This document shows, one piece after another, positions 1,844 through 18,003 of a stretch of DNA of 64,000 nucleotides. Position 1 is the first letter of the stretch. Each line of letters opens with the position of its first letter. The position numbers and the translations under genes are program-made. The stretch comes from Candidatus Bathyarchaeota archaeon. GTDB lineage: Archaea; Thermoproteota; Bathyarchaeia; 40CM-2-53-6. A model generated the notes under the pieces. It ran no database searches. It worked only from the letters and a program-made list of their open reading frames with translations, and was not told the DNA's origin. The DNA lies in NCBI GenBank assembly GCA_963753065.1, contig CAVWAQ010000002.1:535-64534 (forward strand). Direction: 5' to 3'.

Positions 1844-2599
1844 ATGGAGCGCGTTTCATCCGGAGTCAAGGGATTGGACGAGATCCTAGAGGGAGGGTTC
1901 CCCAAGGCAAGGACGATCCTCATCGTGGGAAGCCCAGGATCAGGCAAGACGATTCTCGCGATCCAGTATCTGCGGGCTGGGGCCCTGAAGGGTGAACGTT
2001 CGATCTACGTCACATTCGACGAGAGGCCAGAACAGGTCAAGGAGAACATGTCTGCTTTCAGCTGGGACTTGGACGGGTTGGAGGGGGAAGGCAAGATCAT
2101 GTTCGTCGACGCGACTCCCTTCCGAAGGATGAAGGCGACCTCGACGATCGGGCCCGACGGACGACCAGACATACTCGCTCAGGATGCCTTGCCTGAGATC
2201 ACACTGCGTGCGCTCGTTGAGACCGTGAGGCGTCTTGCTGAGGAAGAGGGTGTGACGAGACTCGTCGTTGACCCGATTACTTCTCTTTCGGTTCGATATC
2301 AGTCGCCGATCAAAAGAAGGCGGGCGATGCTTATGCTCTTCGATGCTCTCTCGTCGACCGGTGCGACATGCCTCGTTAACAGCGAATTGAGAACTTCCAT
2401 GCTGACTCGAAGGTTCCAGCTTGAGGAGTATCTGTCGCAGGGCGTCGTGCTCATGCGAACGGGCATTCATGAAGGTAACGTCGTCAGGGCAGTTCAAGTG
2501 GAGAAGATGAGAGGCATCGCGCACGATACCCAACTGCGCCCATACACGATCGGTCAGAACGGGATCGAAGTCTTCGCGAAAGACAAAGTCTTCAAATGA
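1844..2599 (+). CDS. Single-domain KaiC-like (RecA-superfamily) ATPase
   Basis: The 251-aa ORF has GVKGLDEILEGGFPKARTILIVGSPGSGKTILAIQYL (Walker A) and a Walker B-like RLVVDPITS. This is the typical archaeal KaiC/RadA-like architecture. Confidence 0.85.
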   Translation: MERVSSGVKGLDEILEGGFPKARTILIVGSPGSGKTILAIQYLRAGALKGERSIYVTFDERPEQVKENMSAFSWDLDGLEGEGKIMFVDATPFRRMKATSTIGPDGRPDILAQDALPEITLRALVETVRRLAEEEGVTRLVVDPITSLSVRYQSPIKRRRAMLMLFDALSSTGATCLVNSELRTSMLTRRFQLEEYLSQGVVLMRTGIHEGNVVRAVQVEKMRGIAHDTQLRPYTIGQNGIEVFAKDKVFK

Positions 2600-2800: not shown

Positions 2801-3529
2801 TCACTCAGGTTCGTTCTTTCTGTGTACTCTGGCAAAGACTACGACAGCAAGTACTGTAAAAGTCACGATCAACCAGCTGCTTGAGAACTCTGGGACTGGA
2901 GTGCCGGTGATTGTGACTGTTTGCGTATAGCCTGACCTTGCAACTGTCGTCACCGGTGATCCGCTCTCTGGAGTTGCAAGCGACGGACCCCAAGTGTAGG
3001 TCCCGGCTGTCGAAGGATTAATGAAGAAACCTGCCACACATACGGAATCCAGATACACAGCATTTCCGACCATGGTTTTTGGAATCTGGAAGACCATTTT
3101 GCCTGGCGTAGTCGGAGTAGGCTCGGTCAGTTCCATGTAAGTGGTGTACGTAATGATCACCACGCTGACCGTCGTAACGAAGTGATCTGGAGTGGTTGTG
3201 GTCTTAACGTTGAATGGAGCGCTTAAGGCGCCGCCGGGCTGACCCGCTGTGCCTGTTATGATCGTGATTCCCGACGTACTTGTGATGTATGTAGGGTTGA
3301 TTGAGTATCCGGCTGGAATGACCACGGAGAGGCTAGCGAGAGCCATTTTGCTGTCTGTGTTCTCAATGTGAAACTTGTAGACCGCATCCGTTGCCCCTGG
3401 CTGGGTCGCATCCGTTGCCCCTGAGGTAGTCACATCAAGCGTTGGCGTGGTTGCAAAATCCGCGAGAGCATACGGAGTTACGGCGAGAAGCATCAGGATC
3501 GTCACTATCAGAAGAGTGATTCTCTTCAT
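2801..3529 (-). CDS. Secreted surface protein with a PEF-CTERM-like sorting signal
   Basis: The 242-aa ORF has an N-terminal signal peptide (MKRITLLIVTILMLLAVTPYALA). Its C-terminus is tripartite: TPVPEF, then a TM (SSSWLIVTFTVLAVVVFA), then a basic tail (RVHRKNEPE). Confidence 0.75.
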   Translation of the reverse strand: MKRITLLIVTILMLLAVTPYALADFATTPTLDVTTSGATDATQPGATDAVYKFHIENTDSKMALASLSVVIPAGYSINPTYITSTSGITIITGTAGQPGGALSAPFNVKTTTTPDHFVTTVSVVIITYTTYMELTEPTPTTPGKMVFQIPKTMVGNAVYLDSVCVAGFFINPSTAGTYTWGPSLATPESGSPVTTVARSGYTQTVTITGTPVPEFSSSWLIVTFTVLAVVVFARVHRKNEPE

Positions 3530-4514: not shown

Positions 4515-4898
4515 TGATTCTCTTCGCGACTGAAGTCGCGGAGATTCATGCTTCCACCGCTGGTCCTTTGTTGGGTGGGCATTCCGTTGTTGCGGTTCCA
4601 CCCGCATCCATCCCAGCGCAGAAGCATAGGCCAAACCATCGGCCTGACGGCGTACCCGCCGCAGCGAGCCGCCATATTCACGACGCCTCTACCTACTCGA
4701 GCCTGCCCCGCCTATTTTCGGTTGAGAGCCTTTTTCGAGCCTTCGGACATCTCAACCACATCTGAGCCTACTGTCCCTTTTGGGATTGTCTCATTCGGCC
4801 CAGGAGATCCGGTGTGTGCGAGACATTTAAGCTGCAGGGGCTCGCTTACTCCACACCTAAAGTCGCGAGCTTGCGCTCCCCCCATTATGGTCAACTAT
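4515..4898 (-). repeat. Copy A: hairpin repeat unit interrupted by a structured insert of about 325 nt (candidate non-autonomous mobile element or ncRNA)
   Basis: The minus strand reads TGACCATAATGGGGGGAGCGCAAGCTCGCGACTTTAG | GTGTGGAGTAAGCGAGCCCC...GGTGGAACCGCAACAACGGAATGCCCACCC...GGAAGCATGAATCTCCGCGACTTCAG | TCGCGAAGAGAATCAG. The last ~190 nt are about 90% identical by eye to 58290-58466. Confidence 0.7.
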
Positions 4899-4927
4899 GC
4901 GTCAGCGTTCAGGAGAGACGAAGCGGT

Positions 4928-5767
4928 TTGAAGCTCAGGAACAGGTTGACGCTTTTCTTTGTCATCTACATCATTGCACTAAGTTTTGTTCCTCTGCTTC
5001 ATGATACGCTCCTTGCTCAAGGGAAATGGCTTGGGTACGGCACAGGCGCCTACCAGTATCAGAGCCAGAGCTACTTTGTCCTCTTCAATGATCCGTACGA
5101 TGGCAGCAGCAAACCGCACATCCATGTGAACCCAAGCTTCGCGCCCGCCAGCCGGATCAGCCTGATCGAGTTCAGCGATTGGACGTCTTGGGTGAATGGT
5201 TACAACCTCTTCAATGATTTCAATGTGACGATGCGAGCAAGTCCCCAGACGCTTGACATCACATACAGTGGGCCTGGACTGGTCCTCCACAAGTACATCG
5301 AGATGTCATCGGATGCGGTGAAGGTCATAATGCAGTCCGAAAAGGAGTTCACTGCTCACGTCGAGATGTGGAGATGGGTGATGACATCCATAAACGGGAT
5401 ATCGATAAAGGATGTAGCGAAGCCTCTGGTGATCGCTCCGACGACTTTGCTCGAGTTCACATTTTCGGATGACGGTCTCCCGGGCCTCGGACATGGACGT
5501 ATCGTGATGTCTGCTGTGCCATCTCAGATAGAGATCTGGCCTTACGAGAATGGCTTCAACAAGATCACCGTTGACTTCGTGAACAGCATGATGTCATTCA
5601 CGGTGTCTGGCTCGATGGAGGCAGTCGGAACACCGTCACTGGAGTGGAACTATTCGCTGCTACCCTATGTTCTGCCGGTCGTATCGGTAACGGTAGTCGC
5701 GCTGTACTTGTTGGTCGGTAGGTATGGAAGAACGATCAAGAATCGTGCTGCTAGCCGCGGCAATTAG
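4928..5767 (+). CDS. Membrane-anchored extracellular protein (hypothetical)
   Basis: This is the ORF 4814-5767. The likely start is the in-frame TTG at 4928, giving MKLRNRLTLFFVIYIIALSFVPLL as a signal anchor. There is a C-terminal TM plus basic tail (LPVVSVTVVALYLLVGRYGRTIKNR). The upstream part of the ORF overlaps repeat copy A. Confidence 0.6.
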   Translation: MKLRNRLTLFFVIYIIALSFVPLLHDTLLAQGKWLGYGTGAYQYQSQSYFVLFNDPYDGSSKPHIHVNPSFAPASRISLIEFSDWTSWVNGYNLFNDFNVTMRASPQTLDITYSGPGLVLHKYIEMSSDAVKVIMQSEKEFTAHVEMWRWVMTSINGISIKDVAKPLVIAPTTLLEFTFSDDGLPGLGHGRIVMSAVPSQIEIWPYENGFNKITVDFVNSMMSFTVSGSMEAVGTPSLEWNYSLLPYVLPVVSVTVVALYLLVGRYGRTIKNRAASRGN

Positions 5768-7073
5768 ACTGGCGATCGCGCCCTTCTTCATGCACGCGGG
5801 CGACGTTGGCACAATCTACGAATCCTGCGTCATGGTGCTCAAAGGCGCGAATATCTTCGACTTCGTCTACGCAAAGACTATGCAGATGCAGACCACAACG
5901 GGTCTGCCAGTATTCTTTGAAGGGTACGCGTACCATCCGCTGCTGATCTACTTCTTCGCCCCATTCTATTGGCTTTTCACGTTAATCGCGGGACAGGGTC
6001 CCGTCATGATTGACGGGCACTATCCTTCGCTTCCCGTGCTCATCTACCCGTGGACGCCGGTGCTGCTTCTGATGCTCAAGATTCCGATCATATTGGCAGA
6101 TGTGCTCGTCGTCTATATTTTGGCAGCCAAGGACCTGAGAAAGGCGAAAATCTATGCCTTCTGCCCGTACGTAATATTCATCGGCGTGGTGTGGGGCATG
6201 TTTGATGCCCTTGTCGCCCTGTTCCTTCTTCTATCCTACCTCACGTCCTCTAGGAACAGCTTCCTGTCCGGATTCTTCTATGGTTTGAGCCTGATGAAAC
6301 TGTACACGGTCGTCCTGCTGCCGTTGTACGTGGTTCGCCTTTTCGGAAAATGGAAAGCATTCAGCGCATTTCTGACTGGGTTTGTTGTGACGTTGCTCCC
6401 GGTCGTCTACTACCTGATCGTGAGCCCGGTCTCCATCTGGAATGTACTGGTCACCTTTCAGGGTGGGAGGCTCATGGGCGGCGTCAACTTGTACAATTTC
6501 ATCTGGGTTGTTCAAGATCTGCGATTCGATCTCGCTGTGTCGATGATCCCGAACGTCGTTCTCGTCGTTGCTCTATTGTGTCTGATCGTCAAGTTCGGCA
6601 GGAACGTCCCGCTCCTGCAATCAACTCTGATGATAATGTTTGCGTATTTCCTTTTTGGGAAAGTCATAAACGAGCAGTTCCTCGTCGCAATCTTCCCGCT
6701 AATGCTGCTCTGCAAGGAATGCGACCATAGGCTATGGGTCGCACCGTTCGTCTTCATTTTCCTGCGGTCGCCTTTCTACTACTTCATGCTCCCGATACTT
6801 TGGACGAGCCCCGTCTTCTATGGGTACTATCTTCAGGCAGATGAGGTATGGAGGCAGCTTCAGGCCGCGGGATACCTGCAGATACCTATGTACGCAGTCG
6901 GGATTGCGTTCTCACTTTTGATCTTCTGGAATCTCCTGCGGGTAATTGACGCAACACGCGGTGGAATCTCCTCGACACCTGGAGTAACAGGCCCGATGGG
7001 ACATCGTGCCTACGACCGCGTGCTGAAAAGGGCGCGGGGAGTGTGGGAAAACTCAATCTTAAACCGGCCTTGA
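5724..7073 (+). CDS. Polytopic GT-C-type glycosyltransferase-like membrane protein (DUF2029/GT87-like)
   Basis: The 449-aa ORF has more than 10 predicted TM segments. An N-terminal loop motif, GANIFDFVY...GYAYHPLLIYFFAPFYW, resembles the G-x-N-x-Y...Y-x-P pattern of DUF2029/PMT-like GT-C enzymes. Confidence 0.65.
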   Translation: MEERSRIVLLAAAIRLAIAPFFMHAGDVGTIYESCVMVLKGANIFDFVYAKTMQMQTTTGLPVFFEGYAYHPLLIYFFAPFYWLFTLIAGQGPVMIDGHYPSLPVLIYPWTPVLLLMLKIPIILADVLVVYILAAKDLRKAKIYAFCPYVIFIGVVWGMFDALVALFLLLSYLTSSRNSFLSGFFYGLSLMKLYTVVLLPLYVVRLFGKWKAFSAFLTGFVVTLLPVVYYLIVSPVSIWNVLVTFQGGRLMGGVNLYNFIWVVQDLRFDLAVSMIPNVVLVVALLCLIVKFGRNVPLLQSTLMIMFAYFLFGKVINEQFLVAIFPLMLLCKECDHRLWVAPFVFIFLRSPFYYFMLPILWTSPVFYGYYLQADEVWRQLQAAGYLQIPMYAVGIAFSLLIFWNLLRVIDATRGGISSTPGVTGPMGHRAYDRVLKRARGVWENSILNRP

Positions 7074-7836: not shown

Positions 7837-8451
7837 TCAGGAGCCCATTGAAGTTGGCTGGGCGTTCTCGCGTAAGGTCCGCATTCTCCGCATATAGTCC
7901 ACGGAGAAGCATGCCATCGCAAAGATGAGCACAACCAGCTTCGCTGCGAACACTACGTTGATAGCGTACGGGTTGGCTGGCCACCAGTTCACGATAATGT
8001 CGGGATTCTGCAGTCCCTGAACCGCTAGCCCTGCGGACCATAGAACGATCTGATACAGGACCTCGAAGCCGCTCATCATCACAAAGAACCACGCCACGAC
8101 GTACAGGAGTTCGAAAAGGTTCTCCCCCATTCTGAGAAATCTTGTTTTAGAGATCGGTGAGCTCAGGCCGAGCGCGAAGGAGACGAAGAACAGGTAGGTG
8201 AACAAGGTGATGGGTTTGATGACGAACCCCGGAAGGTAGATCTCGGCAAGCACCAAGTTCTCACCTACTACATACGGAGCAGTCACCTTGACAGAGTAGC
8301 TCAGCAGTACCGCGAACGCAAGCAGTCCAAAGGCCATCGAAAGAATGTTGTTCAACTCTCTAGGTACAAGTGAGCCTGCAACTCGACCGTTCAGAGATCG
8401 AACCCCGGCTCCGGCGTTGCTTTCGATTCTCTTCGAGGTTCCCTGCTTCAT
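7837..8451 (-). CDS. Integral membrane protein (hypothetical)
   Basis: This is the ORF 7837-8514. The internal ATG at 8451 avoids overlap with the upstream gene. There are about 5 hydrophobic segments. Confidence 0.5.
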   Translation of the reverse strand: MKQGTSKRIESNAGAGVRSLNGRVAGSLVPRELNNILSMAFGLLAFAVLLSYSVKVTAPYVVGENLVLAEIYLPGFVIKPITLFTYLFFVSFALGLSSPISKTRFLRMGENLFELLYVVAWFFVMMSGFEVLYQIVLWSAGLAVQGLQNPDIIVNWWPANPYAINVVFAAKLVVLIFAMACFSVDYMRRMRTLRENAQPTSMGS

Positions 8452-8482
8452 CTTATAGGCGCTCCTCACCCACTCGGCACGG

Positions 8483-9400
8483 TCAGAGATTAAACCGTTG
8501 CGAGAGCCTCGCATTTGATGTGCAAGGTGACATAGTCACGGAGAGACATGCCTCTTGAGAAGGCGTGGCGCGTTGTTCGATGATACGTATTCTGGGAGAG
8601 GATGTCGTTGAAAGGAAGGGCAACGTTGAAGCACGATCTTGTGTCGAGGTGAGGGTCGTTTTCTTCGTCGCAGAGAATCCATGAACATATGCAGTGTGCC
8701 AGCCCGTCGCTGAGGCTGTTACACTGAAGATAATGCTCAGCCGGATTTGGTCTGGTGGATTCCATTGAGCATTCCTGTATTGTGCAACGAGATCAATCGA
8801 GTGATATCCCCATTCTCCCATTTGGGTTTGAAGGAAGATAGTGCGATGGGTCGGCGAGATGCTCGCCTCTGCTGCTGTCTCCACGAAGACAAAGTCGAGT
8901 GTGTGCGTTCCGTCGTTGGTCTCGATCTCAAGGATGCTGCCTTGCTCTGATATGGGTCCCTTGCATGCGCAAGAAGCTTGAAGGAGGACCCAAATGCCCA
9001 CATCTTCGTCGAACAGGGCCCGCGCTCTGATGCCATCAATTGTCTGTCCCAAGCGAACGTAGGTCAAATTGTTGTCCGAGCCATCTTGGAAGATTTGGAT
9101 CTCGAGAGCTTTCTTGTCATCGGCCACAGTCTGCTGTAGCAGGATTTGGTCTCCGACGCTTTTTTCGTATTCAAGTTCCCATATCATCGGTGTCTTGCTG
9201 CCAAGCGTGGGATTCGAACCCCAGAGGCTGAATTCAGGATCCAAGATTGGTGGCGGGTACTCTGTCTTGGCCTGTAGATTAGTGAAAGCGAATCCGGCTA
9301 CGAGTATTAGGATGACTGCTGATAGCGGGGCCGTTAGCTTCCTCACATGTTTCAAGTTGCTTGCACCGTTCTCGTCTTCGCCTGCTCGGATTTGTACCAT
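8483..9400 (-). CDS. N-terminally anchored extracellular protein (hypothetical)
   Basis: This is the ORF 8483-9496. The likely start is M33 (9400), followed by a TM (LTAPLSAVILILVAGFAFTNL). It is in the same operon orientation as the GT-C gene upstream. Confidence 0.5.
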   Translation of the reverse strand: MVQIRAGEDENGASNLKHVRKLTAPLSAVILILVAGFAFTNLQAKTEYPPPILDPEFSLWGSNPTLGSKTPMIWELEYEKSVGDQILLQQTVADDKKALEIQIFQDGSDNNLTYVRLGQTIDGIRARALFDEDVGIWVLLQASCACKGPISEQGSILEIETNDGTHTLDFVFVETAAEASISPTHRTIFLQTQMGEWGYHSIDLVAQYRNAQWNPPDQIRLSIIFSVTASATGWHTAYVHGFSATKKTTLTSTQDRASTLPFLSTTSSPRIRIIEQRATPSQEACLSVTMSPCTSNARLSQRFNL

Positions 9401-10608
9401 AGTATGATCGAGACGAGCATGAGCGGCGTCCAATAGATGATGTAATTTGTTAGCGCCCTGTATGAGAACCACAAGGCAATCCCTGGGAAGATCCAAAACG
9501 CAAACCGCAACTTGTCAAAGTACACATAGTAGTTCACAATCAGCACCAGAAAAACCGACGCGAAGACCACTGTGTAGAAGATCTTGCCCACCGGCAGTAG
9601 ACCGACTTCTGTGAGCGCCGAAAGGCCTTGGCTATGTATAACCAGATCCGCGGTCATTGGAGTCAACACATTCCCAAACCACGCGGTTGGACTCGGAAGC
9701 ATGAACGGGAGGTTGATTGCAAGAAACACAGCAACCGTCGTTGCTGCGAACTTCATGGCAGGCCAGAGTCTCTTGCGTAGACGCTTGCTCTCGTCGGTCT
9801 TGATGAGGTAAATCAGGAGAAAGGGTGCTATGAACCAGGGTGTCTGCTTCATCGCACATGCTAATCCATAGAAGAGCCCGAGGGCAAGGGGTCTCTCTAG
9901 GCAGAACGCTGCGAACAGTAGCGGCAAGACCCATAGCGCGTCCGATACGCTGGCGGCGGTGAAGTTTATCATGAGATCCGAACCCGCGAACAGAGGAAGC
10001 AACAGCATGGGCCTCAGCTTTCTCGGTCCTTTCAGGTAGAGTGTCAATACGACGCCGACTTCGAACAGGACGAGGACCCATCGCATGTCTCGCAGGCCCA
10101 GCAGCACGAATGGCACGAACACGAGGAAATGCAGTGCTGGGTACTGGAAAGTCATGAGATAAGTTCCGGAGGTCAGCGGGGTAAGGTCGGACGGTAGAAC
10201 CTTGAACAAGTCCAGTGCTTTCGTCATGTCTTGCGTGTACGGGTTCGCGCCTTGGTTCACGAACAGTATCGCCGCGTAGTGGCTGAATGCGAGAACGTCA
10301 GTCCTGTATGCGCCTGCGTAAGAGATCTCTGCCACAACATAGACGCTGGTGACCATTGCCAGTAGGAGTGGAAGCAGGGGAAGGTCCCGAAACCTGAGAA
10401 CCACGCTGCTAGGCAGCAATGACATTACAAAGACGAGCAGAGATACCGCGTAGATGACAAGGGTGAGAACGATGACTTCAGGGCGACCGTTGCCTCTGTT
10501 GTAGTCCTGGAAGCCTTCGTAGAGGGCGAACTGGGCTGAGAAGATGAATGCGAGCCTGAGTATGAATACCTCATCGATTGAAGCGAAAGGCGAGTCCGGT
10601 TTCGTCAC
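9352..10608 (-). CDS. Polytopic GT-C-type glycosyltransferase-like membrane protein (DUF2029-like)
   Basis: The 418-aa ORF has many TM segments. The motif QGANPYTQDM...FQYPALHFLVFVPF resembles the DUF2029/GT-C loop motif. Confidence 0.65.
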   Translation of the reverse strand: MTKPDSPFASIDEVFILRLAFIFSAQFALYEGFQDYNRGNGRPEVIVLTLVIYAVSLLVFVMSLLPSSVVLRFRDLPLLPLLLAMVTSVYVVAEISYAGAYRTDVLAFSHYAAILFVNQGANPYTQDMTKALDLFKVLPSDLTPLTSGTYLMTFQYPALHFLVFVPFVLLGLRDMRWVLVLFEVGVVLTLYLKGPRKLRPMLLLPLFAGSDLMINFTAASVSDALWVLPLLFAAFCLERPLALGLFYGLACAMKQTPWFIAPFLLIYLIKTDESKRLRKRLWPAMKFAATTVAVFLAINLPFMLPSPTAWFGNVLTPMTADLVIHSQGLSALTEVGLLPVGKIFYTVVFASVFLVLIVNYYVYFDKLRFAFWIFPGIALWFSYRALTNYIIYWTPLMLVSIILWYKSEQAKTRTVQAT

Positions 10609-10617
10609 TTCTGTTCC

Positions 10618-11367
10618 TTAGCCTCCTCTCTCTTCGTCTCCTTCGCCATTGTCGCCATCACTTGTCTTCATACGAGTTCTCGTCTTCCTTCGGGCAAGTG
10701 TCAGTATGGTTTCTAGGATCGGGAAGTTCAGCAGGACCATCACAAGTATGCCTAATGTGAGCCACGTGACCACGATGCTGCTTTCAGCTCTTCCGGGCTG
10801 GAAGAAGGGTTGAGGGGACATGACTCGTTTGACCTGCTGGGTCTCCCCGGTTGCGACAATGATGTCGCGCCATAATGTTCCGCCATTGTCCTGGTTCACT
10901 ATCTCGAAGCTCGTCGTGCCGTTTCCGCCTGTCATTAGCCATATGTAGACGCGAGGAAGATCGGTGTTGACCTCCAGTATCAGGTCGGCATAGATTTCGG
11001 TATAGTTGAAGTTATTGAGGCCTTTGAAGAAGGCCACCATGTCGCCTTTCCGTGCTACGGTTGAATTAAATTCTGTGTCTGGCCACGCGATCTTACGTCC
11101 GACGTAGAGTTGGTCATTCGAGTCCTTTCCTTCCAGCCATCCGCTGCTGACCACGGTCCTGATTCGGAGGCCGTTGGAATTGGTGCCGTTGAGATCGTCG
11201 AAGAGAAGCCGGCCCCAGTCCGCGGTAGAGCGGATAATGACTCTGGTAGGGGAAGCCTCTTGCCACTGATCCTCGATGATCTGCGCCGAACTCGCTGAAA
11301 AAGCCTGAGAGATGATGAGGACTGCAAATCCGAGGACGAGGCATCTTCGAATATTAGGAGATAACAT
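10618..11367 (-). CDS. Secreted, C-terminally anchored protein immediately downstream of the archaeosortase-like gene
   Basis: The 249-aa ORF has a signal peptide (LVLGFAVLIISQAFSASSAQ). Its C-terminus has a hydrophobic stretch followed by a basic/acidic tail (ARRKTRTRMKTSDGDNGEGDEERGG). Confidence 0.6.
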   Translation of the reverse strand: MLSPNIRRCLVLGFAVLIISQAFSASSAQIIEDQWQEASPTRVIIRSTADWGRLLFDDLNGTNSNGLRIRTVVSSGWLEGKDSNDQLYVGRKIAWPDTEFNSTVARKGDMVAFFKGLNNFNYTEIYADLILEVNTDLPRVYIWLMTGGNGTTSFEIVNQDNGGTLWRDIIVATGETQQVKRVMSPQPFFQPGRAESSIVVTWLTLGILVMVLLNFPILETILTLARRKTRTRMKTSDGDNGEGDEERGG

Positions 11368-11440: not shown

Positions 11441-12457
11441 TCAGGTGCCTCCGGATTCTGGAACAGTGCATTTCGCTCGTGCTGTGAGCCTACTCTCAAT
11501 ATTGAGTACAATGATGATGAAAGCGAGAATCCACAGAGGGAAGAGGAACTCGCCGATTGAGTTGTGAAATGCATCCAAGTCCGCTCCCGACGTCGCATAT
11601 ACATACGCATAGTATGCGATGATAAATATCCTAGTAACGTTCAGGAATATTGTGCCTGCCACACCTGTGATCGCGTACACCAGTTTTCTCTTCGCTGGCG
11701 CGACCAGTCTAGCCGCAAGAAGGATCATCACTAGCGAGTAGATGAGCATGCTTTGAACTCCCACACTCGGCCAGAAGACGTACAACCGGTAGGTTCCATG
11801 CTTACCTAGTATGGTCAGCATGTTGCCGATTCCATAGATGGGCAACCCGAAAATCTTGGAGAGTAACGCGACGCCAGCAACCACGAAGTTCGCCCAGAAC
11901 TGTAGCGGGCCGAGTGAGCCATAGGGAAAGAATGCGTCGAGAAGGTACATTATCAGCATCCCTGCGGAGAAGACCACCGCAGCGAGGATGCTCAGAATTG
12001 ATCTTGCGCCGAAAAATGCTACTGCGAGCCCCATGACATACAGCGTCAATACCATGTAGTCGACAGCCATCAGCCAACTGTTGCTGACTTCTCCTGATGC
12101 GCCGAGGATTCGACCAGCCCAGTAGACAGAATCCGTGAACTGCCCAACAGCAGTAATCGCACCAAAGTAGAAGAGAGCAAGACCAACCAGGATCACTATT
12201 GCTATCTTTCGGGTCCTGTTCAAACGAGGTTTGGCGATCTTTCGGAAATCCATCAACTCGAATGCTAGGAAAAAGAGAACGAAGAAGAGGCCTCCTCTTC
12301 CAAGCTTTCCAAAGCCCGCCCAGCTCAACCCGAATGTGTCAGGTGCAAACGCGAAGGCGACCAGGATTGGAATGGCTGAGAGGACAAGGAAGAGGTCGGC
12401 CAGCTTGAGTTGGTGGGGCAGTCGTCGCCTAACGGATCCTATCAGAGCCCGCATCAT
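11441..12457 (-). CDS. Archaeosortase/exosortase-family protein, Ser variant at the canonical Cys position
   Basis: The 338-aa polytopic protein has exosortase-domain motifs with the expected spacing. These are WP-S231-VGVQSM (canonical C-[SA]-G-[IVL]-x-S-[LM]), N-V-T-R276-I, and F-H298-NSIG. The S231 codon is AGT (complement 11767-11765), one transversion from TGT. Confidence 0.7.
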   Translation of the reverse strand: MMRALIGSVRRRLPHQLKLADLFLVLSAIPILVAFAFAPDTFGLSWAGFGKLGRGGLFFVLFFLAFELMDFRKIAKPRLNRTRKIAIVILVGLALFYFGAITAVGQFTDSVYWAGRILGASGEVSNSWLMAVDYMVLTLYVMGLAVAFFGARSILSILAAVVFSAGMLIMYLLDAFFPYGSLGPLQFWANFVVAGVALLSKIFGLPIYGIGNMLTILGKHGTYRLYVFWPSVGVQSMLIYSLVMILLAARLVAPAKRKLVYAITGVAGTIFLNVTRIFIIAYYAYVYATSGADLDAFHNSIGEFLFPLWILAFIIIVLNIESRLTARAKCTVPESGGT

Positions 12458-12619: not shown

Positions 12620-14155
12620 TCAAGTTGAGAGCGAAGGCACACCGGTCAATGGAGAACTGCGTCTGCGACGTAATGAGATCACGACAAATACGACGCTTGC
12701 AAGCAAGATTGCCAGACTCGCGACGAAAAGCGCTTGAAGCCAAAGAATGTTCATGCCGTTTTCTGCAGGCTTGATATCTTCCCAGGACGCTTGGATGTTC
12801 TTCGAGCCATTGACGAGGACACTAGATGATGGTGAAGAGTCGTTCGAATCGCCTAGCCAGCCGACGAACACGTGCGTCACTTTGTCTGTCACTACTGGGG
12901 GCGTCACGCGGAAGGTTGCAGTCGAACTCTCATCATACCATCCTGCTCCTGATGCTTGGCCTATGGGTGATGTGACGTTCAAGTAGTATTGCTTGCGATA
13001 GATGGCAAGCAGACACACGTCACGCGATATGGACAGCTGCAGGATCGAGGAAGCAGATGAAACATTCCACTGTTCGAATACTGCCCGTGCCGTGTTTCCC
13101 ATCATTATGACAGGCGGCACCGAGATAGTGTGCTCGCCTCGGGTTGCATTCAGCGTTATCTCGCCACTTGATCCCGTGCGAAACGCTTGGCCATCGAATC
13201 CCACGATCGCATTCGGGTATCCGACGATTACGTGCGTCGAGAACGAGTCCGTCACATCGACAGAAACGTCTCTGAGGCCATCCGCGACAATGGTCCAGTT
13301 CCCGCCCACTTGGATCAATGGGATCAGGCTCAAGTGGGCTGTTCTCGGATTCTCGCCTGACGGGACAGTCGTGAGAAGATATGTCTCGCCTTGTCCACTG
13401 AGTTGTTTCTCGGCGACCGATACTACGGACATTGCGTCTGTATCAAAGGCGAGTACTGCGACAGTTGAGTTTGACGGTAGGTCGTAGCGTAGTTGTGCAG
13501 TGATCGCGAACGCTTCTCTTGTTCCCACCTTGCTCGGTGCACGTGCAGCTACTATAGTAGCATTCAGGGGCGAATGTATCTGCGTGCTAGCTGTGTGGTT
13601 GAGTGCAATTCTCGAAATTTGCTCTTTCTCTCGCTCAAATTGTAGGCTCTTGCACGTTTCGATGAACTTGATGGTAATCAGGGTGGCTCTGCTGTCGTAT
13701 TCTCCCGAATCCATTATTGTCCACACTTCGTGCTCGACGTCAGGAATCAGATGATACTCTCTGTGGTACCATGATCCGTCTCGCCATCCTTCTTCCGGTG
13801 CATTTGCAAAGAAAGCTTGACCCGACGCAGTGAACTCCGGTGCGATCCTATCGCCATATAGTAGGAGAAGGCTTGCGCGTAGCGATTTGGCTTGGGAAGA
13901 CACCCCTTCGTCGATCTTCGTCGTGATTATTATCAGGCCATTAGGGCTGGTCCAATCTTCGGGGCTGACGACGATGAGCTCTTTGGCGGCGACCATTGCT
14001 CCGACCGAGTAGCCGACAACGTACATGTACGTGTATCCTTGTTCGTGGGCCCACGATTGGATCTTCTTGATGAAGTCGTATGATCCAGGGTAAGGCTCGC
14101 AGAAGATAGTTCGATTCAACGTCGTGTCCACATTACGTATTGACTCCTCTCTCAA
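12620..14155 (-). CDS. Anchored surface protein: alpha/beta-hydrolase-like domain, beta-sandwich region, InlB-B-repeat-like domain and C-terminal TM
   Basis: There is a nucleophile elbow (VVGYSVGAMVAA). A B-repeat-like segment is YYLNVTSPIGQASGAGWYDESSTATFRVTPP...FVGWLGDS. The C-terminal TM plus basic tail is LFVASLAILLASVVFVVISLRRRRS. The N-terminus appears to continue in the 3' part of ORF 14133-15497, in another frame. Confidence 0.6.
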   Translation of the reverse strand: MREESIRNVDTTLNRTIFCEPYPGSYDFIKKIQSWAHEQGYTYMYVVGYSVGAMVAAKELIVVSPEDWTSPNGLIIITTKIDEGVSSQAKSLRASLLLLYGDRIAPEFTASGQAFFANAPEEGWRDGSWYHREYHLIPDVEHEVWTIMDSGEYDSRATLITIKFIETCKSLQFEREKEQISRIALNHTASTQIHSPLNATIVAARAPSKVGTREAFAITAQLRYDLPSNSTVAVLAFDTDAMSVVSVAEKQLSGQGETYLLTTVPSGENPRTAHLSLIPLIQVGGNWTIVADGLRDVSVDVTDSFSTHVIVGYPNAIVGFDGQAFRTGSSGEITLNATRGEHTISVPPVIMMGNTARAVFEQWNVSSASSILQLSISRDVCLLAIYRKQYYLNVTSPIGQASGAGWYDESSTATFRVTPPVVTDKVTHVFVGWLGDSNDSSPSSSVLVNGSKNIQASWEDIKPAENGMNILWLQALFVASLAILLASVVFVVISLRRRRSSPLTGVPSLST

Positions 14156-15497
14156 GCGCCAGAACGTCGTAGTGCTCTGCTAGATCTTGGATGAAACGGA
14201 TGGTGTTGTAGGACTCGAATTCGTAAGGGTTCACTAGGAAAGTCGTAGACTCGATGGTTCCGCCACCAAGCCATATCAGGAGAGTATCACTCGCTGTTTG
14301 CTTCCAGTGGTACCAGGTCGCGTCGCCGATGGTGACGCTCTCTGGTTGACTTGGGTTGGACGCTTGAGCCGGATGAATCGTTGACGAGTGTCCGGCCGCT
14401 ACGAGGAAGATCAGCATTACAAGGGTAGCCCTCGCATGAGCCTTTCCTCGGAGCAGGTTGCTTCGCCTGCCGGCGTGAGTTCTTCTCCAAATAGTGACCG
14501 CTATTGCCACAAGGATCGTTGAGCATGCAAGGCAGGTCATTGACGCAATTTCGAGTTCAGATGTCACCGTCACTGAATGGCTACCTTCCGACCAGTTCGC
14601 GACAACAGTCCTAGGCCCATCCATGAGGAGCCATCCAACAGGAGAGCTTGAATCTGAATCGCCTGACCAGTGAGTGAACTCGTGCGATCCTTGCGTGGTT
14701 GATGATTGTCCGACGAGGCCAGAGTCGATGACAGCGAAGGTCGCGTTCGCGCTTGCGGGATACCAGCCGGAACCAACAGTCCGGCCTACGGCGGATTCCA
14801 CGCTGAGAAAATACTCTGTCAAATAGATCGCAGAGAGGTCAAGGCTGTCGGTCAGGTAGATTCTCCTCGACGAAGCACGTATTCCGTCGCTCCAGTGGTC
14901 AAACACAGCTCGTGTTCCCATCCCTTGGGTGAGAGATGCCTCGATGTCGATCGTGTGGTAACCGCGTGTTGTCGTGATCTGAACACCCTCGAGGCTGAGT
15001 TGGTGCGAGACGCCGTCAATCGTTGCTGCAGATGGGATAACATTCGATGCGAGAACGAGAGTGATGCTGGTAGGATCTGAGACTGTGATCGCAAATGGGA
15101 ATGTTGCTCCTTTCTGATTCGCGTACCACCCCTCATGCCACCAGACTCTGACAGTTGCTACGAGCAGCCAAACGCCGGGTTGCTCTCGGCCGGTAAAGTG
15201 GAAAGTGAACACGTTTCGTCCAGATGGTATGATCAGTCCCTTTGACGCGAGCACGAAGTTCGTTGCTTTGTCCAGAATTGCGATGTCTGTCGAGTATCGT
15301 TCGGAGTAATCGACAGCAACTGTCACGACCAGGTCCTCGTTTGGCAAGATTCTGGAGGGTGCTTCTACACCCGTTATCTGAGCCACGGGGAGCTTCTCTA
15401 GAGCCCATGTTGCTGCGGTGTTCGACAGCGCTGCAAAGACGAGAATAACCGCGATCACGAGAACCTTCTTGTTTCTGGCTCGCGTCGTGGTTGGCAA
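14133..15497 (-). CDS. Anchored surface protein paralog (beta-sandwich + InlB-B-repeat-like + TM) reading through into the start of the next gene
   Basis: There is an N-terminal signal anchor and a B-repeat-like segment (YFLSVESAVGRTVGSGWYPASANATFAVI...FTHWSGDS). A TM with basic stop-transfer follows (CSTILVAIAVTIWRRTHAGRR). A second signal-like segment (LVMLIFLVAAGHSSTIHPAQA) and hydrolase-like sequence then follow with no intervening stop codon. Confidence 0.6.
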   Translation of the reverse strand: MPTTTRARNKKVLVIAVILVFAALSNTAATWALEKLPVAQITGVEAPSRILPNEDLVVTVAVDYSERYSTDIAILDKATNFVLASKGLIIPSGRNVFTFHFTGREQPGVWLLVATVRVWWHEGWYANQKGATFPFAITVSDPTSITLVLASNVIPSAATIDGVSHQLSLEGVQITTTRGYHTIDIEASLTQGMGTRAVFDHWSDGIRASSRRIYLTDSLDLSAIYLTEYFLSVESAVGRTVGSGWYPASANATFAVIDSGLVGQSSTTQGSHEFTHWSGDSDSSSPVGWLLMDGPRTVVANWSEGSHSVTVTSELEIASMTCLACSTILVAIAVTIWRRTHAGRRSNLLRGKAHARATLVMLIFLVAAGHSSTIHPAQASNPSQPESVTIGDATWYHWKQTASDTLLIWLGGGTIESTTFLVNPYEFESYNTIRFIQDLAEHYDVLALERGVNT

Positions 15498-15740: not shown

Positions 15741-17339
15741 ATGTTGCCGGACGAAGGGAAGTCGCTGCGGCCTGTGAATTCGGAGCGAGCGTCTATTCGA
15801 CTCGTGCACAAGGCTACGATGTTCTCATGGTTATGGAGAGACTATGCGGATGGCCTGCGGTACCATGCGCGTAGGCTGAATGGTCATCAAGTGATGATTC
15901 TCGCCGCTGACAGATCACTCGTCGATCTTGATGCTCGGAAAGGCGCGATGGGCGAGTTCATCGTGGAACGGCTGCTGACACCATATCGTCCGTTACAGAA
16001 TGCAGAGCTACTTCACTCAATCGAGGTCGACGCGAAGGAACGAATTCTCCGTGAGGAGCTGACGGAGCTGGTCCTTGAATACGGAGACATGGCAAGGGAG
16101 CTGTCGATTCAAGAAGAGTATCTGATGCTTGCTCGAATCAGGAGGCGCGCAAGAGTGTTCTTGTCTGCAGCAAGGACTTGTTCGCTCCTGCTCGATCGGT
16201 CTGTTCGTGAGGCGAACCTCAAGAAGATGACGCCAGGTTACCGGAGCGCAATACAGAGACTCATTGATGCAGGAGTTCTTCGAGAGGAAGGCCCTGCCTA
16301 TTCTCTCGTAGATTCGTTCGTTGATCGTTCGCTCAGAAGACACCCCGCTAGGAAGGTCATCAATATTGTGCAAGCAGGAAGGCGAACGCTCCAAGCATAT
16401 CTAGCACATGGGAAAGCTACATACTTGACTCCGGACATTCTAACAAGAGAACTCGTATCTTCACTTGAGGCGGGCCTTCTCGGCGAGTTTCCATCGGAGA
16501 CTCTTGAGGATCCCAAGAAATACTTGTCTTTGAAGACGACGACTGGCCTCGTTAGTCTCGCGGAAAGATTCTCGATCGAGAAATTCGCAGGCCAATTCAG
16601 GCCGGGCGTGATCGTCACAGTTACGCCGCTCGGGAACGCTCTGAATGAGGTATACCTGATCACAGCGGGCAATGAGCGGCTCGTAACGAAGAAATTCACA
16701 GAATGGCAGAACTTCAAGTGGTTCACTCTTGGCCTCGTCTCGCTCGGAACGCAGTTCTTCTCCGTCTCGGGAAAGGCCAGACTTGAGAACGAGTATGCCG
16801 TCAATCGGTTGTTGTCCAGGCATCGAGTGCCAGTCGCAGAAATCTTGCACATCAGTTTGCCGGATCGCGTTCTTGTGGAACGTTACATCGAAGGAATCTC
16901 GCTGGTCGAACTCGCCAAGAAGGCTGTGTCGAACAAGTCACTTTCTGAGCAGGACCATGCCGCCGTGTCCAAGGTCGGTTCGATACTGGCTAGAATGCAT
17001 GCAGCTGGTGTAGCCATGGGAGATTCCAAGCCAGAGAACTTCCAATACGGAGTCGACAAGGAGGTTTACTCCCTTGATCTCGAGCAGGCAAGAAAGTCAG
17101 GAGACAAGGCATGGGATGTTGCAGAGTTCCTCTACTACTCAGGCCATTATGTGTTCCCCACGATGCTTTCAGCCGGTTTCAAGGAATACGTCGAGGCCTT
17201 CATTCATGGTTACCTGGCTAAGGGAGACCAGAATGTACTGAAGACTGCGGCTGGCGCTAAGTATGGGCGAGTTTTCTCGCTTTGGACCCCTCCACTTGTC
17301 ATTCTCGAAATATCGAAATCCCTGAGAAGTGCTGCTTGA
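15741..17339 (+). CDS. Protein with a C-terminal Bud32/RIO/Kdo-like small kinase domain and an uncharacterised N-terminal region
   Basis: The 532-aa ORF has kinase-like motifs in its C-terminal third: LVTKKF (VAIK-like Lys), LVERYIEG, HAAGVAMGDSKPENFQY (catalytic-loop-like D-x-K-P-x-N) and YSLDLEQA (DFG/DLE-like). Confidence 0.55.
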   Translation: MLPDEGKSLRPVNSERASIRLVHKATMFSWLWRDYADGLRYHARRLNGHQVMILAADRSLVDLDARKGAMGEFIVERLLTPYRPLQNAELLHSIEVDAKERILREELTELVLEYGDMARELSIQEEYLMLARIRRRARVFLSAARTCSLLLDRSVREANLKKMTPGYRSAIQRLIDAGVLREEGPAYSLVDSFVDRSLRRHPARKVINIVQAGRRTLQAYLAHGKATYLTPDILTRELVSSLEAGLLGEFPSETLEDPKKYLSLKTTTGLVSLAERFSIEKFAGQFRPGVIVTVTPLGNALNEVYLITAGNERLVTKKFTEWQNFKWFTLGLVSLGTQFFSVSGKARLENEYAVNRLLSRHRVPVAEILHISLPDRVLVERYIEGISLVELAKKAVSNKSLSEQDHAAVSKVGSILARMHAAGVAMGDSKPENFQYGVDKEVYSLDLEQARKSGDKAWDVAEFLYYSGHYVFPTMLSAGFKEYVEAFIHGYLAKGDQNVLKTAAGAKYGRVFSLWTPPLVILEISKSLRSAA

Positions 17340-17352
17340 TTGATGAGTTGCC

Positions 17353-18003
17353 ATGGTGCGGATTGAACCCGACCGTCAGTTTCGAGCAGCGATATTCGAC
17401 CTTGATGGCACTCTGACCGATACTCGAAGTATCTGGCAGCATCTTCACGGGAAATTCGGGACTTTGGATGTGGGAAGAAGAACGGCTGAGATGTACCAGG
17501 ACGGACGAATAGACTACGTTGAGTGGGCAAGGCTAGACGCGGCATGTTGGAAAGGCATCTCCTTGGTCGACCTCCTTCCAGCTCTGAGTGAGATCCGCTA
17601 CACGCCCGGCGCGCCTGAGCTCATGGAGCAGCTCAGAAATCATGGGATTCGAACAGGAATTGTAAGTGCAGGCCTGTCGATACTGGCTGACAAAGCCAAA
17701 GTTGACTTGAACGCCGATCTGGTGATCTCCAACGAGCTTAAGGTGATTAATGGAGTCCTAACAGGGGAGGTCGTCGTGCGAGTCGGGCCAGGCAACAAGG
17801 AAGCTGTCATTGAAGAAGCCGCATGGTTGCTGGGAGCCGACATGAAAGAGACAATCGTGGTCGGCGACAATCTGTTTGACCTTCCAAAGTCTGCCCGTCT
17901 CAAAGTAGCTTTCAAACCTGTCACGATACAGGCCAGAGCAGCGGCAGATGTCGTAGTTGAAGACGACGACATCCGAGCGGTTGCCGACCACATCTTCCAA
18001 TAG
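17353..18003 (+). CDS. HAD-superfamily hydrolase, subfamily IB (phosphoserine phosphatase-like)
   Basis: HAD motif I is AAIFDLDGTLTD, motif II is VSAG, and motif IV is VVGDNLFD. Confidence 0.8.
   Translation: MVRIEPDRQFRAAIFDLDGTLTDTRSIWQHLHGKFGTLDVGRRTAEMYQDGRIDYVEWARLDAACWKGISLVDLLPALSEIRYTPGAPELMEQLRNHGIRTGIVSAGLSILADKAKVDLNADLVISNELKVINGVLTGEVVVRVGPGNKEAVIEEAAWLLGADMKETIVVGDNLFDLPKSARLKVAFKPVTIQARAAADVVVEDDDIRAVADHIFQ

Follow-up and report, generated by a model that had tools for sequence, protein, structure and literature searches.

Archaeosortases and exosortases are described as cysteine proteases or transpeptidases. The present work deals with a member of this family that carries a serine at the position of the nucleophilic cysteine, namely a protein of 338 amino acids (aa) encoded at 11441-12457, on the minus strand, of a 64,000-nucleotide stretch (called here the window) of Candidatus Bathyarchaeota archaeon (assembly GCA_963753065.1, contig CAVWAQ010000002.1, positions 535 to 64,534). 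To our knowledge, the only archaeosortase studied experimentally is ArtA (HVO_0915) from Haloferax volcanii, and whether it carries out a one-step transpeptidation is still open. Like the window enzyme, ArtA is a polytopic membrane enzyme of the TIGR04178/PF09721 superfamily; it processes a tripartite C-terminal signal, called PGF-CTERM, and, as in the window family, its nucleophile and an Arg are conserved (PMC9263693, PMC6098224). Cys173, Arg214 and Arg253 are required for its activity (PMC9263693). A thio-ester acyl-enzyme formed on Cys173 and resolved by the amine of archaetidylethanolamine has been proposed, and the attachment of the lipid depends on PssA and PssD (PMC7157517). The triad of the family as a whole has been described as Cys/Arg/His (bioRxiv 10.1101/2023.06.07.544157). 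In contrast to ArtA, with its Cys173, two critical Arg residues and PGF signal, the window enzyme has a Ser in the nucleophile column and a PEF-like motif as its putative signal.

A Ser-type subfamily is already curated in NCBIfam under the name "thaumarchaeosortase" (TIGR04297), with a cognate PEFG-CTERM model (TIGR04296, 'PEFG-CTERM sorting domain-containing protein'). The first-pass annotation of the window, made by a model from the letters of the sequence, had left in doubt whether such a subfamily had been formally described; TIGR04297, whose bona fide members read WPSAG, answers this doubt. For instance, proteins of Nitrosopumilus (locus L021), Nitrosotalea (L048) and Nitrosocaldus (L063), all of them ammonia-oxidising archaea (AOA), score 529, 479 and 411 bits, respectively, with this model, whose curated cutoff is 250, and all three carry the motif WPSAGVHS. 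The description of TIGR04297 reportedly mentions the replacement of Cys by Ser. Another described relative, the Archaeosortase C (TIGR03762) that accompanies the PEF-CTERM signal (TIGR03024) of methanogens, is of the Cys type; the window enzyme only reaches 22.6 bits with its model, far below the cutoff of 100. The word 'thaumarchaeosortase' was not found in the literature searched; PEFG-CTERM proteins do come up in studies of ammonia oxidisers (PMC6593220; bioRxiv 10.1101/175141).

Judging from its profile matches, the window protein belongs to the exosortase/archaeosortase family, far beyond chance. The best NCBIfam match is TIGR04297 (E=3.3e-43, 148.3 bits), although below its curated cutoff. 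The exosortase/archaeosortase signature TIGR04178 was passed (40.6 bits versus a cutoff of 23), Pfam PF09721 (Exosortase_EpsH) was passed marginally (26.1 bits versus a gathering score of 25.7), and the ArtC, ArtD and XrtD models of NCBIfam gave weak sub-threshold matches. The family placement made in the first-pass annotation is thus upheld by profile hidden Markov models (HMMs). An AlphaFold2 model, built with 45 homologs as input (predicted local distance difference test, pLDDT, 83.1; predicted template-modelling score, pTM, 0.79), is a polytopic helix bundle of 9-10 long helices, which fits the superfamily expectation of about 8 transmembrane (TM) segments, with a short beta-hairpin predicted at residues 207-226, just ahead of Ser231. 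A sequence search of the PDB found no solved relative of the protein, and a Foldseek comparison of the AlphaFold2 model with the PDB found none either (best E-value 0.24, TM-scores of at most 0.24).

The window protein shares with the thaumarchaeosortases the best curated model, the architecture, the Ser column, the Arg and the His, and both groups have proteins with (V)PEF-G/S tails encoded nearby. However, while it possesses a TIGR04297-type Ser (WPSxG), its score stays below 250 and its host belongs to the Bathyarchaeia, not to the ammonia oxidisers. The two lineages also differ in the motif (WPSAGVHS in AOA, WPSVGVQS in the window), in overall sequence (31-37% identity), in the codons used for the Ser (AGY in the window lineage, not TCN) and in the presence of a gene island encoding a secreted partner and a GT87-like glycosyltransferase, which the Bathyarchaeial lineage has and the 66 AOA loci analysed lack; moreover, Cys-type proteins branch between both groups. 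Cys-type relatives match TIGR04297 as well as the window protein does (127-172 bits). The window protein is therefore best described as an uncurated Bathyarchaeia-specific lineage, related to the thaumarchaeosortase model but outside it, and it adds a new uncurated Bathyarchaeial branch to the Ser-for-Cys archaeosortases already catalogued. Three things go beyond the existing catalogue: evidence that the nucleophile has switched repeatedly, tails of the PVPEFS type and a gene island that is conserved. The lineage falls between annotation models: the Bathyarchaeial Ser-type relative P0126 has the generic NCBI name 'exosortase/archaeosortase family protein', and JGI labels many relatives 'thaumarchaeosortase', including the Cys-type P0125 and P0130. 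A dedicated model would correct both.

According to the translation of the open reading frame (ORF) at 11441-12457, the motif WPSVGVQSM starts at residue 229, NVTRIF at residue 273 and FHNSIG at residue 297, which gives Ser231, Arg276 and His298. The respective codons lie on the minus strand at 11765-11767 (AGT, which is ACT on the plus strand), 11630-11632 (within the NVTR motif) and 11564-11566 (within FHNSIGE). In alignments of homologs and representatives, Arg276 and His298 are the conserved Arg and His of the family, and Ser231 lies where most members of the family have the nucleophilic Cys. The first-pass annotation had given the same residue numbers and the same Ser codon. The only Cys of the protein is C330, in the C-terminal tail; its column is mostly Arg in an alignment of 120 homologs, and in every column of this alignment Cys stays below 10% of the sequences. 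A shift of the motif alignment to another Cys was also considered and is ruled out, since the only one available is the non-conserved C330.

The homology of the column was assessed with a broader sample. A family profile was compared with 1.84 billion proteins, in which about 15 billion are clustered at 50% identity and each cluster has one representative. This yielded 290 matches with an E-value of at most 0.001, and the best 150 of them were aligned. Among the 130 that cover the nucleophile column, 72 have Cys, 56 Ser, one Asn and one Gly, and the surrounding motif, W-P-[C/S]-[A/S/V]-G-x-x-S, is the same in Cys- and Ser-type representatives. The Arg276 column is Arg in all 139 representatives covering it, and the His298 column is His in 133 out of 135. 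In addition, the Ser or Cys corresponds to position 7 of the TIGR04178 profile (hmmscan coordinates) in the 20 Ser/Cys proteins checked; in a 21st protein, P0227, which is outside these 20, the check picked up a spurious motif. The common motif column and the common profile position indicate that Ser231 occupies the conserved-Cys column of the family, in agreement with the assignment to the catalytic Cys column made earlier. The nucleophilic Cys expected of the superfamily is replaced by Ser231 in the window protein, and this replacement is a recurrent natural exception among the representatives, which does not put the protein outside the superfamily. The two other states of the column come from P0128, a fragment of 199 aa that reads WPNVGVQS, its Asn being one step away from an AGY Ser codon, and from P0140, with Gly, a degenerate motif and Tyr replacing the His; both may be errors or decayed copies.

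Within the lineage the Ser is conserved without exception. A search of 5.8 billion proteins gave 209 matches, and the 120 listed ones, which come from independent JGI, ENA, NCBI and Logan assemblies, were analysed (56-100% identity). Ser231, Arg276 and His298 are each invariant in these 120 listed homologs, as is the W-P-S-V-G-V-x-S context of the Ser. A genome scan restricted to one genome per species provided 80 loci. Fourteen are close relatives (53-93% identity to the window protein), 13 of which are labelled as metagenome-assembled genomes (MAGs) of Bathyarchaeia or Bathyarchaeota; the other 66 are AOA loci (Nitrosopumilaceae, Nitrosotalea, Nitrosocaldus and similar; 31-37% identity). Ser is encoded in 80 of the 80 scanned loci, including 66 out of 66 AOA; with the window added, the count for Bathyarchaeia is 15 out of 15. 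Neither the Ser nor the Arg or the His changes over this range, whose lowest identity is 31%. The AOA proteins (WPSAGV) were found by means of a scan pattern that does not include the Ser, so their count is not circular. Among the close relatives the Ser codon differs in its third position without any change of amino acid: 12 loci have AGC, whereas 2 loci and the window have AGT. On this pattern of conservation, Ser231 is real and selected.

Candidate sorting signals are encoded in the vicinity of these sortases. In the window, a secreted protein of 242 aa (2801-3529, minus strand) has a tripartite tail composed of PVPEFS, a TM helix and basic residues, and this tail sequence makes it the candidate substrate; its C-terminus reads ...PVPEFSSSWLIVTFTVLAVVVFARVHRKNEPE, also given as ...TGTPVPEFSSSWLIVTFTVLAVVVFARVHRKNEPE. 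The first-pass annotation had described it as a PEF-CTERM-like substrate: the tripartite tail is indeed present, but its sole family match, with TIGR03024 PEF-CTERM, amounts to 16.6 bits and does not reach the cutoff of 23, the P-E-F core being common to both. Near-identical tails are found in large proteins of loci L007, L011, L012 and L081. In the first three the tail, SNIPVPEFS(G/A)I..V.AFSALAASLYLLRRRR, ends large proteins encoded about 0.9 kb upstream of the sortase, and in L081 the same PVPEFS tail ends a large protein inside the island. A PIPEYS tail is encoded near the sortase in L006, and two genes adjoining the sortase of L087 (P0172 clade) end in VVPEFS and AIPEFP tails. In the AOA loci, VPEFG tails are encoded as near to the sortase as 55 bp and as far away as about 4.3 kb. 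Thus, PVPEFS, PIPEYS or VPEFG tails followed by a TM helix and a basic cluster lie 0.05-9 kb from the sortase in the window and in L006, L007, L011, L012, L081, L087, L020, L021, L055, L073 and L075. The Bathyarchaeial PVPEFS/PIPEYS tails give no match to TIGR04296 at E-values of 1 or below, while an AOA neighbour protein scores 17.8 bits with it.

The reading that we favour, with a probability of roughly 70%, is that the window protein is a functional polytopic sorting enzyme in which the Cys has been stably replaced by Ser231 with Arg276 and His298 kept, and that it cleaves PEF-type tails within an island devoted to the maturation of surface proteins. The invariance of Ser, Arg and His, the almost complete limitation of the column to Cys or Ser and the recurrent switches between both support a working nucleophile. 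The enzyme would recognise secreted proteins that end in (I/V)PEF-S/G, a TM helix and an Arg/Lys cluster. Ser231, with His298 as the base and Arg276 assisting, would attack the backbone at the PEF motif or close to it, forming an oxy-ester acyl-enzyme instead of the thio-ester proposed for ArtA, and this intermediate might be resolved by an amine-bearing lipid, which would leave the protein anchored, or by water. In doing so the enzyme would act together with the products of the island: the secreted partner, the GT87-like glycosyltransferase, two membrane proteins, a large surface protein and a KaiC-like ATPase. A functional analogue is the rhombosortase/GlyGly-CTERM system, in which an intramembrane serine protease serves a tripartite C-terminal sorting signal and the substrate receives a lipid-like moiety at its new C-terminus (PMC6219818; bioRxiv 10.1101/2023.06.07.544157). 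Unlike the window enzyme, rhombosortase has the fold of the rhomboid family, which is unrelated and shows no sequence similarity, but this precedent indicates that Ser chemistry can drive analogous sorting (PMC6219818). In a family described as one of cysteine enzymes, stable Ser lineages beside Cys sisters would constitute natural variants for the acyl-enzyme model.

Several observations weigh against this reading or against its evolutionary side. No solved structure of the family that could inform the geometry of the active site was found in the PDB, by sequence or by fold, and no experimental data on any Ser-type member were found in the literature searched. The candidate tails score below the curated cutoffs, and TIGR04296 does not match those of Bathyarchaeia. 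Only one PEF-type tail was found in the 64-kb window with a regular expression and an HMM made from the tails described above, and L004, L008 and L014, whose flanks are complete, have no PEF-type tail within 10 kb. The trees that underlie the evolutionary argument are distance-based (neighbour-joining) and were built from very divergent sequences.

Different explanations could account for the Ser without a Ser-dependent sorting enzyme. An error of sequencing or assembly, or a TGT codon inactivated recently by mutation in this genome, both put forward in the first-pass annotation, could be suspected given that AGT is one transversion from TGT and that a probable 1-nt indel splits a neighbouring gene about 2.4 kb away. 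However, such an origin is excluded, as Ser is found in the 120 listed homologs from independent assemblies and in 80 out of 80 loci, and the closest relatives use AGC or AGT and never TGY; the third possibility raised there, a genuine Ser subfamily, is borne out by the orthologs, the HMMs and the homology of the column. The Ser-type proteins could instead be conserved pseudo-enzymes that bind PEF-type tails, or that act as scaffolds or chaperones of the island machinery, without cleaving anything. The replacement of the ArtA Cys (C173S) reportedly abolishes activity, so that a change to Ser would not be neutral in that scaffold; the term C173S was not found in the literature searched, and neither was a report of activity for Ser-type members. 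Nevertheless, pseudo-enzymes usually drift at their catalytic residues, and here all three residues are unchanged even in proteins with only 31% identity; in addition, the column is essentially Cys or Ser among the 130 representatives and has switched repeatedly between them, the pattern expected of a required nucleophile, so that we regard a pseudo-enzyme as quite unlikely. A third explanation, in which residue 231 is only structural and catalysis relies on another residue, such as the invariant Ser236 or Ser241, or on a water molecule activated by His and Arg, appears very unlikely. Ser236 is conserved whether the protein is of the Ser or the Cys type (of 128 sequences, 119 have Ser and 9 Gly) and Ser241 is invariant in close homologs, but the 9 representatives with Gly at position 236 do not fit a nucleophile, and ArtA is reported to need Cys173 (PMC9263693), which is taken to be the single conserved Cys of the family and thereby the equivalent of the Ser231 column.

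The origin of the Ser was also analysed, and it bears on a further alternative: that the window protein is a divergent ortholog of the thaumarchaeosortases. Bathyarchaeia and Nitrososphaeria would then owe their Ser to one event in a shared ancestor, and a narrow seed alignment would explain why TIGR04297 scores so low. A single origin would fit several facts: the window protein scores best with TIGR04297, JGI names such proteins thaumarchaeosortase, and PEF-G/S tails occur near both groups; besides, many GTDB-style classifications place the classes Bathyarchaeia and Nitrososphaeria in one phylum. On the other side, when 104 full-length representatives are joined in a neighbour-joining tree, the Ser and Cys forms are intermixed. 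With the nucleophile column removed, 200 bootstrap trees analysed by Fitch parsimony require 8-15 Cys/Ser changes, never fewer than 8, versus about 34 with shuffled labels, and the smallest clade uniting the window clade and the AOA clade holds at least 3 Cys-type members in 100 out of 100 bootstrap replicates. The Ser codons are AGY in the Bathyarchaeial clade (14 out of 14 loci and the window) and TCN in the AOA (66 out of 66 genes). The other Ser clades alternate between TCA (P0126, P0134, P0165) and AGC (P0123, P0172, P0194), their nearest Cys relatives using TGC (P0133, P0125, P0170); close pairs such as P0170 (Cys, TGC) and P0194 (Ser, AGC) are split only by the state of the nucleophile. 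According to the 'two serines' argument, reportedly made by Brenner in 1988, AGY and TCN cannot be interconverted in one step within Ser, while Cys TGY is one step from both. The simplest reading of the AGY/TCN split, with TGC Cys relatives in between, is therefore repeated Cys/Ser switching, and we infer that the Ser of Bathyarchaeia probably arose separately from that of the AOA. The equal TIGR04297 scores of Cys-type proteins and the window protein, and a gene neighbourhood that the AOA loci do not share, also speak against a single origin, which we consider unlikely. The broader proposal is that the Ser-type archaeosortases result from repeated independent nucleophile switches, whether from Cys to Ser or from Ser to Cys, in uncultured archaea including Bathyarchaeia and Nitrososphaeria, and that the window subfamily is separate from thaumarchaeosortase, with its own PVPEFS-type signal and a dedicated glycosylation and partner-protein island; to this proposal as a whole we give about equal weight for and against. 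If repeated switching is true, the family would be a natural experiment on thio-ester versus oxy-ester chemistry in an intramembrane transpeptidase.

The island around the window sortase starts with the secreted partner, a protein of 249 aa encoded at 10618-11367 on the minus strand. A signal peptide and a C-terminal anchor were found in it, as expected from its earlier description as a secreted, anchored protein, and it has a conserved extracellular domain with N-X-S/T sequons. Its C-terminus is highly conserved, with the motif RVMSPQPFFxPGRxES followed by a TM helix ending in LNFPxLE and by a basic cluster. A homolog of the partner is located immediately downstream of the sortase in 14 out of 14 Bathyarchaeia loci, and another is present in L081, the distant island; no Pfam or NCBIfam family matches the window protein at 10618-11367. 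The partner could be a dedicated substrate or an accessory or membrane subunit. Judging from their conservation, its C-terminal 70 residues may be, beyond a passive anchor, a second dedicated recognition signal for the sortase.

The next gene (9352-10608, minus strand) encodes a polytopic glycosyltransferase of the GT87-like (GT-C) type, whose match to PF09594, 24.8 bits, is just below the gathering score of 25; the GT-C enzyme noticed in the first-pass annotation is thus recognised again. It is conserved in 13 Bathyarchaeia loci, and the L081 homolog has a precomputed PF09594 match. It is followed, also on the minus strand, by a conserved gene at 8483-9496, whose product has one N-terminal TM helix and has homologs in 11 loci and L081, and by a gene for a conserved membrane protein at 7837-8514, with homologs in 10 loci and L081. 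The true start of the former is probably located downstream of 9496, because the ORF overlaps the glycosyltransferase gene. In close loci, where the contig reaches, the order is sortase, partner, GT87-like gene and the homologs of 8483-9496 and 7837-8514. Beyond 7837-8514 the window has a divergently oriented pair (5724-7073 and 4814-5767). When nine neighbouring ORFs were scanned with Pfam and NCBIfam, hardly any match emerged apart from the borderline one to GT87, none of the window-island neighbours was found in the 66 AOA loci, and a tRNA scan and an Rfam scan of the 64-kb window gave no matches. For the Bathyarchaeia, abundant and largely uncultured archaea of soils and sediments, the island provides a concrete hypothesis for the anchoring of surface glycoproteins.

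Upstream of the sortase, the minus strand encodes a large surface protein of about 980 aa (12620-15497) with a C-terminal TM helix and an RRRR anchor. The corresponding gene is a single ORF in L001, L004, L006 and L014; in the window an insertion of 1 nt near 14149 (GAGAGAGGAG versus GAGA-AGGGG in a DNA alignment with L001) breaks it into the ORFs 14133-15497 and 12620-14155, so that the gene is either truly a pseudogene or wrongly assembled. The 'two anchored surface proteins' reported at first in this region are consequently one frameshifted gene, and their candidacy as separate substrates was rejected, the anchor being a plain TM helix with RRRR and no PEF motif.

Further genes travel with the island. 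A Bud32-like kinase-domain protein of 532 aa (15741-17339) and a HAD-IB phosphatase similar to phosphoserine phosphatases (17353-18003), both encoded on the plus strand, form a pair that is kept with the sortase island in L004, L006, L014, L007 and L081. A KaiC-like ATPase, identified by matches to NCBIfam KaiC-domain models (1844-2599, plus strand; the overlapping antisense ORF 1940-2737 is probably spurious), is recurrent across several Ser-type clades: in L007-L012 and L083 its gene lies immediately upstream of that of the sortase, and in L081 and L085 it is close by. In the window, the KaiC-like gene adjoins that of the PVPEFS-tailed protein instead of the sortase. L081, which represents a more distant Bathyarchaeial Ser-type clade (P0126), has the same gene set in a different order, and the KaiC-like ATPase, the Bud32-like protein and the HAD phosphatase are all present both there and in the window.

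Three cases deserve separate mention. L009 (DATKOK010000106.1), the one close relative among the 14 that is not labelled Bathyarchaeia or Bathyarchaeota but binned as Methylomirabilota, carries the Bathyarchaeial sortase, partner and GT87 island, with 57% identity, and its label probably comes from mis-binning. The MAG CAZJVZ01 (Bathyarchaeia) has two copies of the whole island, L001 and L004, with sortases 93% and 67% identical to that of the window, which are either paralogous islands or the product of a mixed bin. Finally, in L083 (P0134), an archaeal contig, the Ser-type sortase and its KaiC-like neighbour are surrounded by genes of cell division and the cytoskeleton: two for CdvA and others for a Vps4-like AAA ATPase, a CetZ tubulin and an actin homolog.

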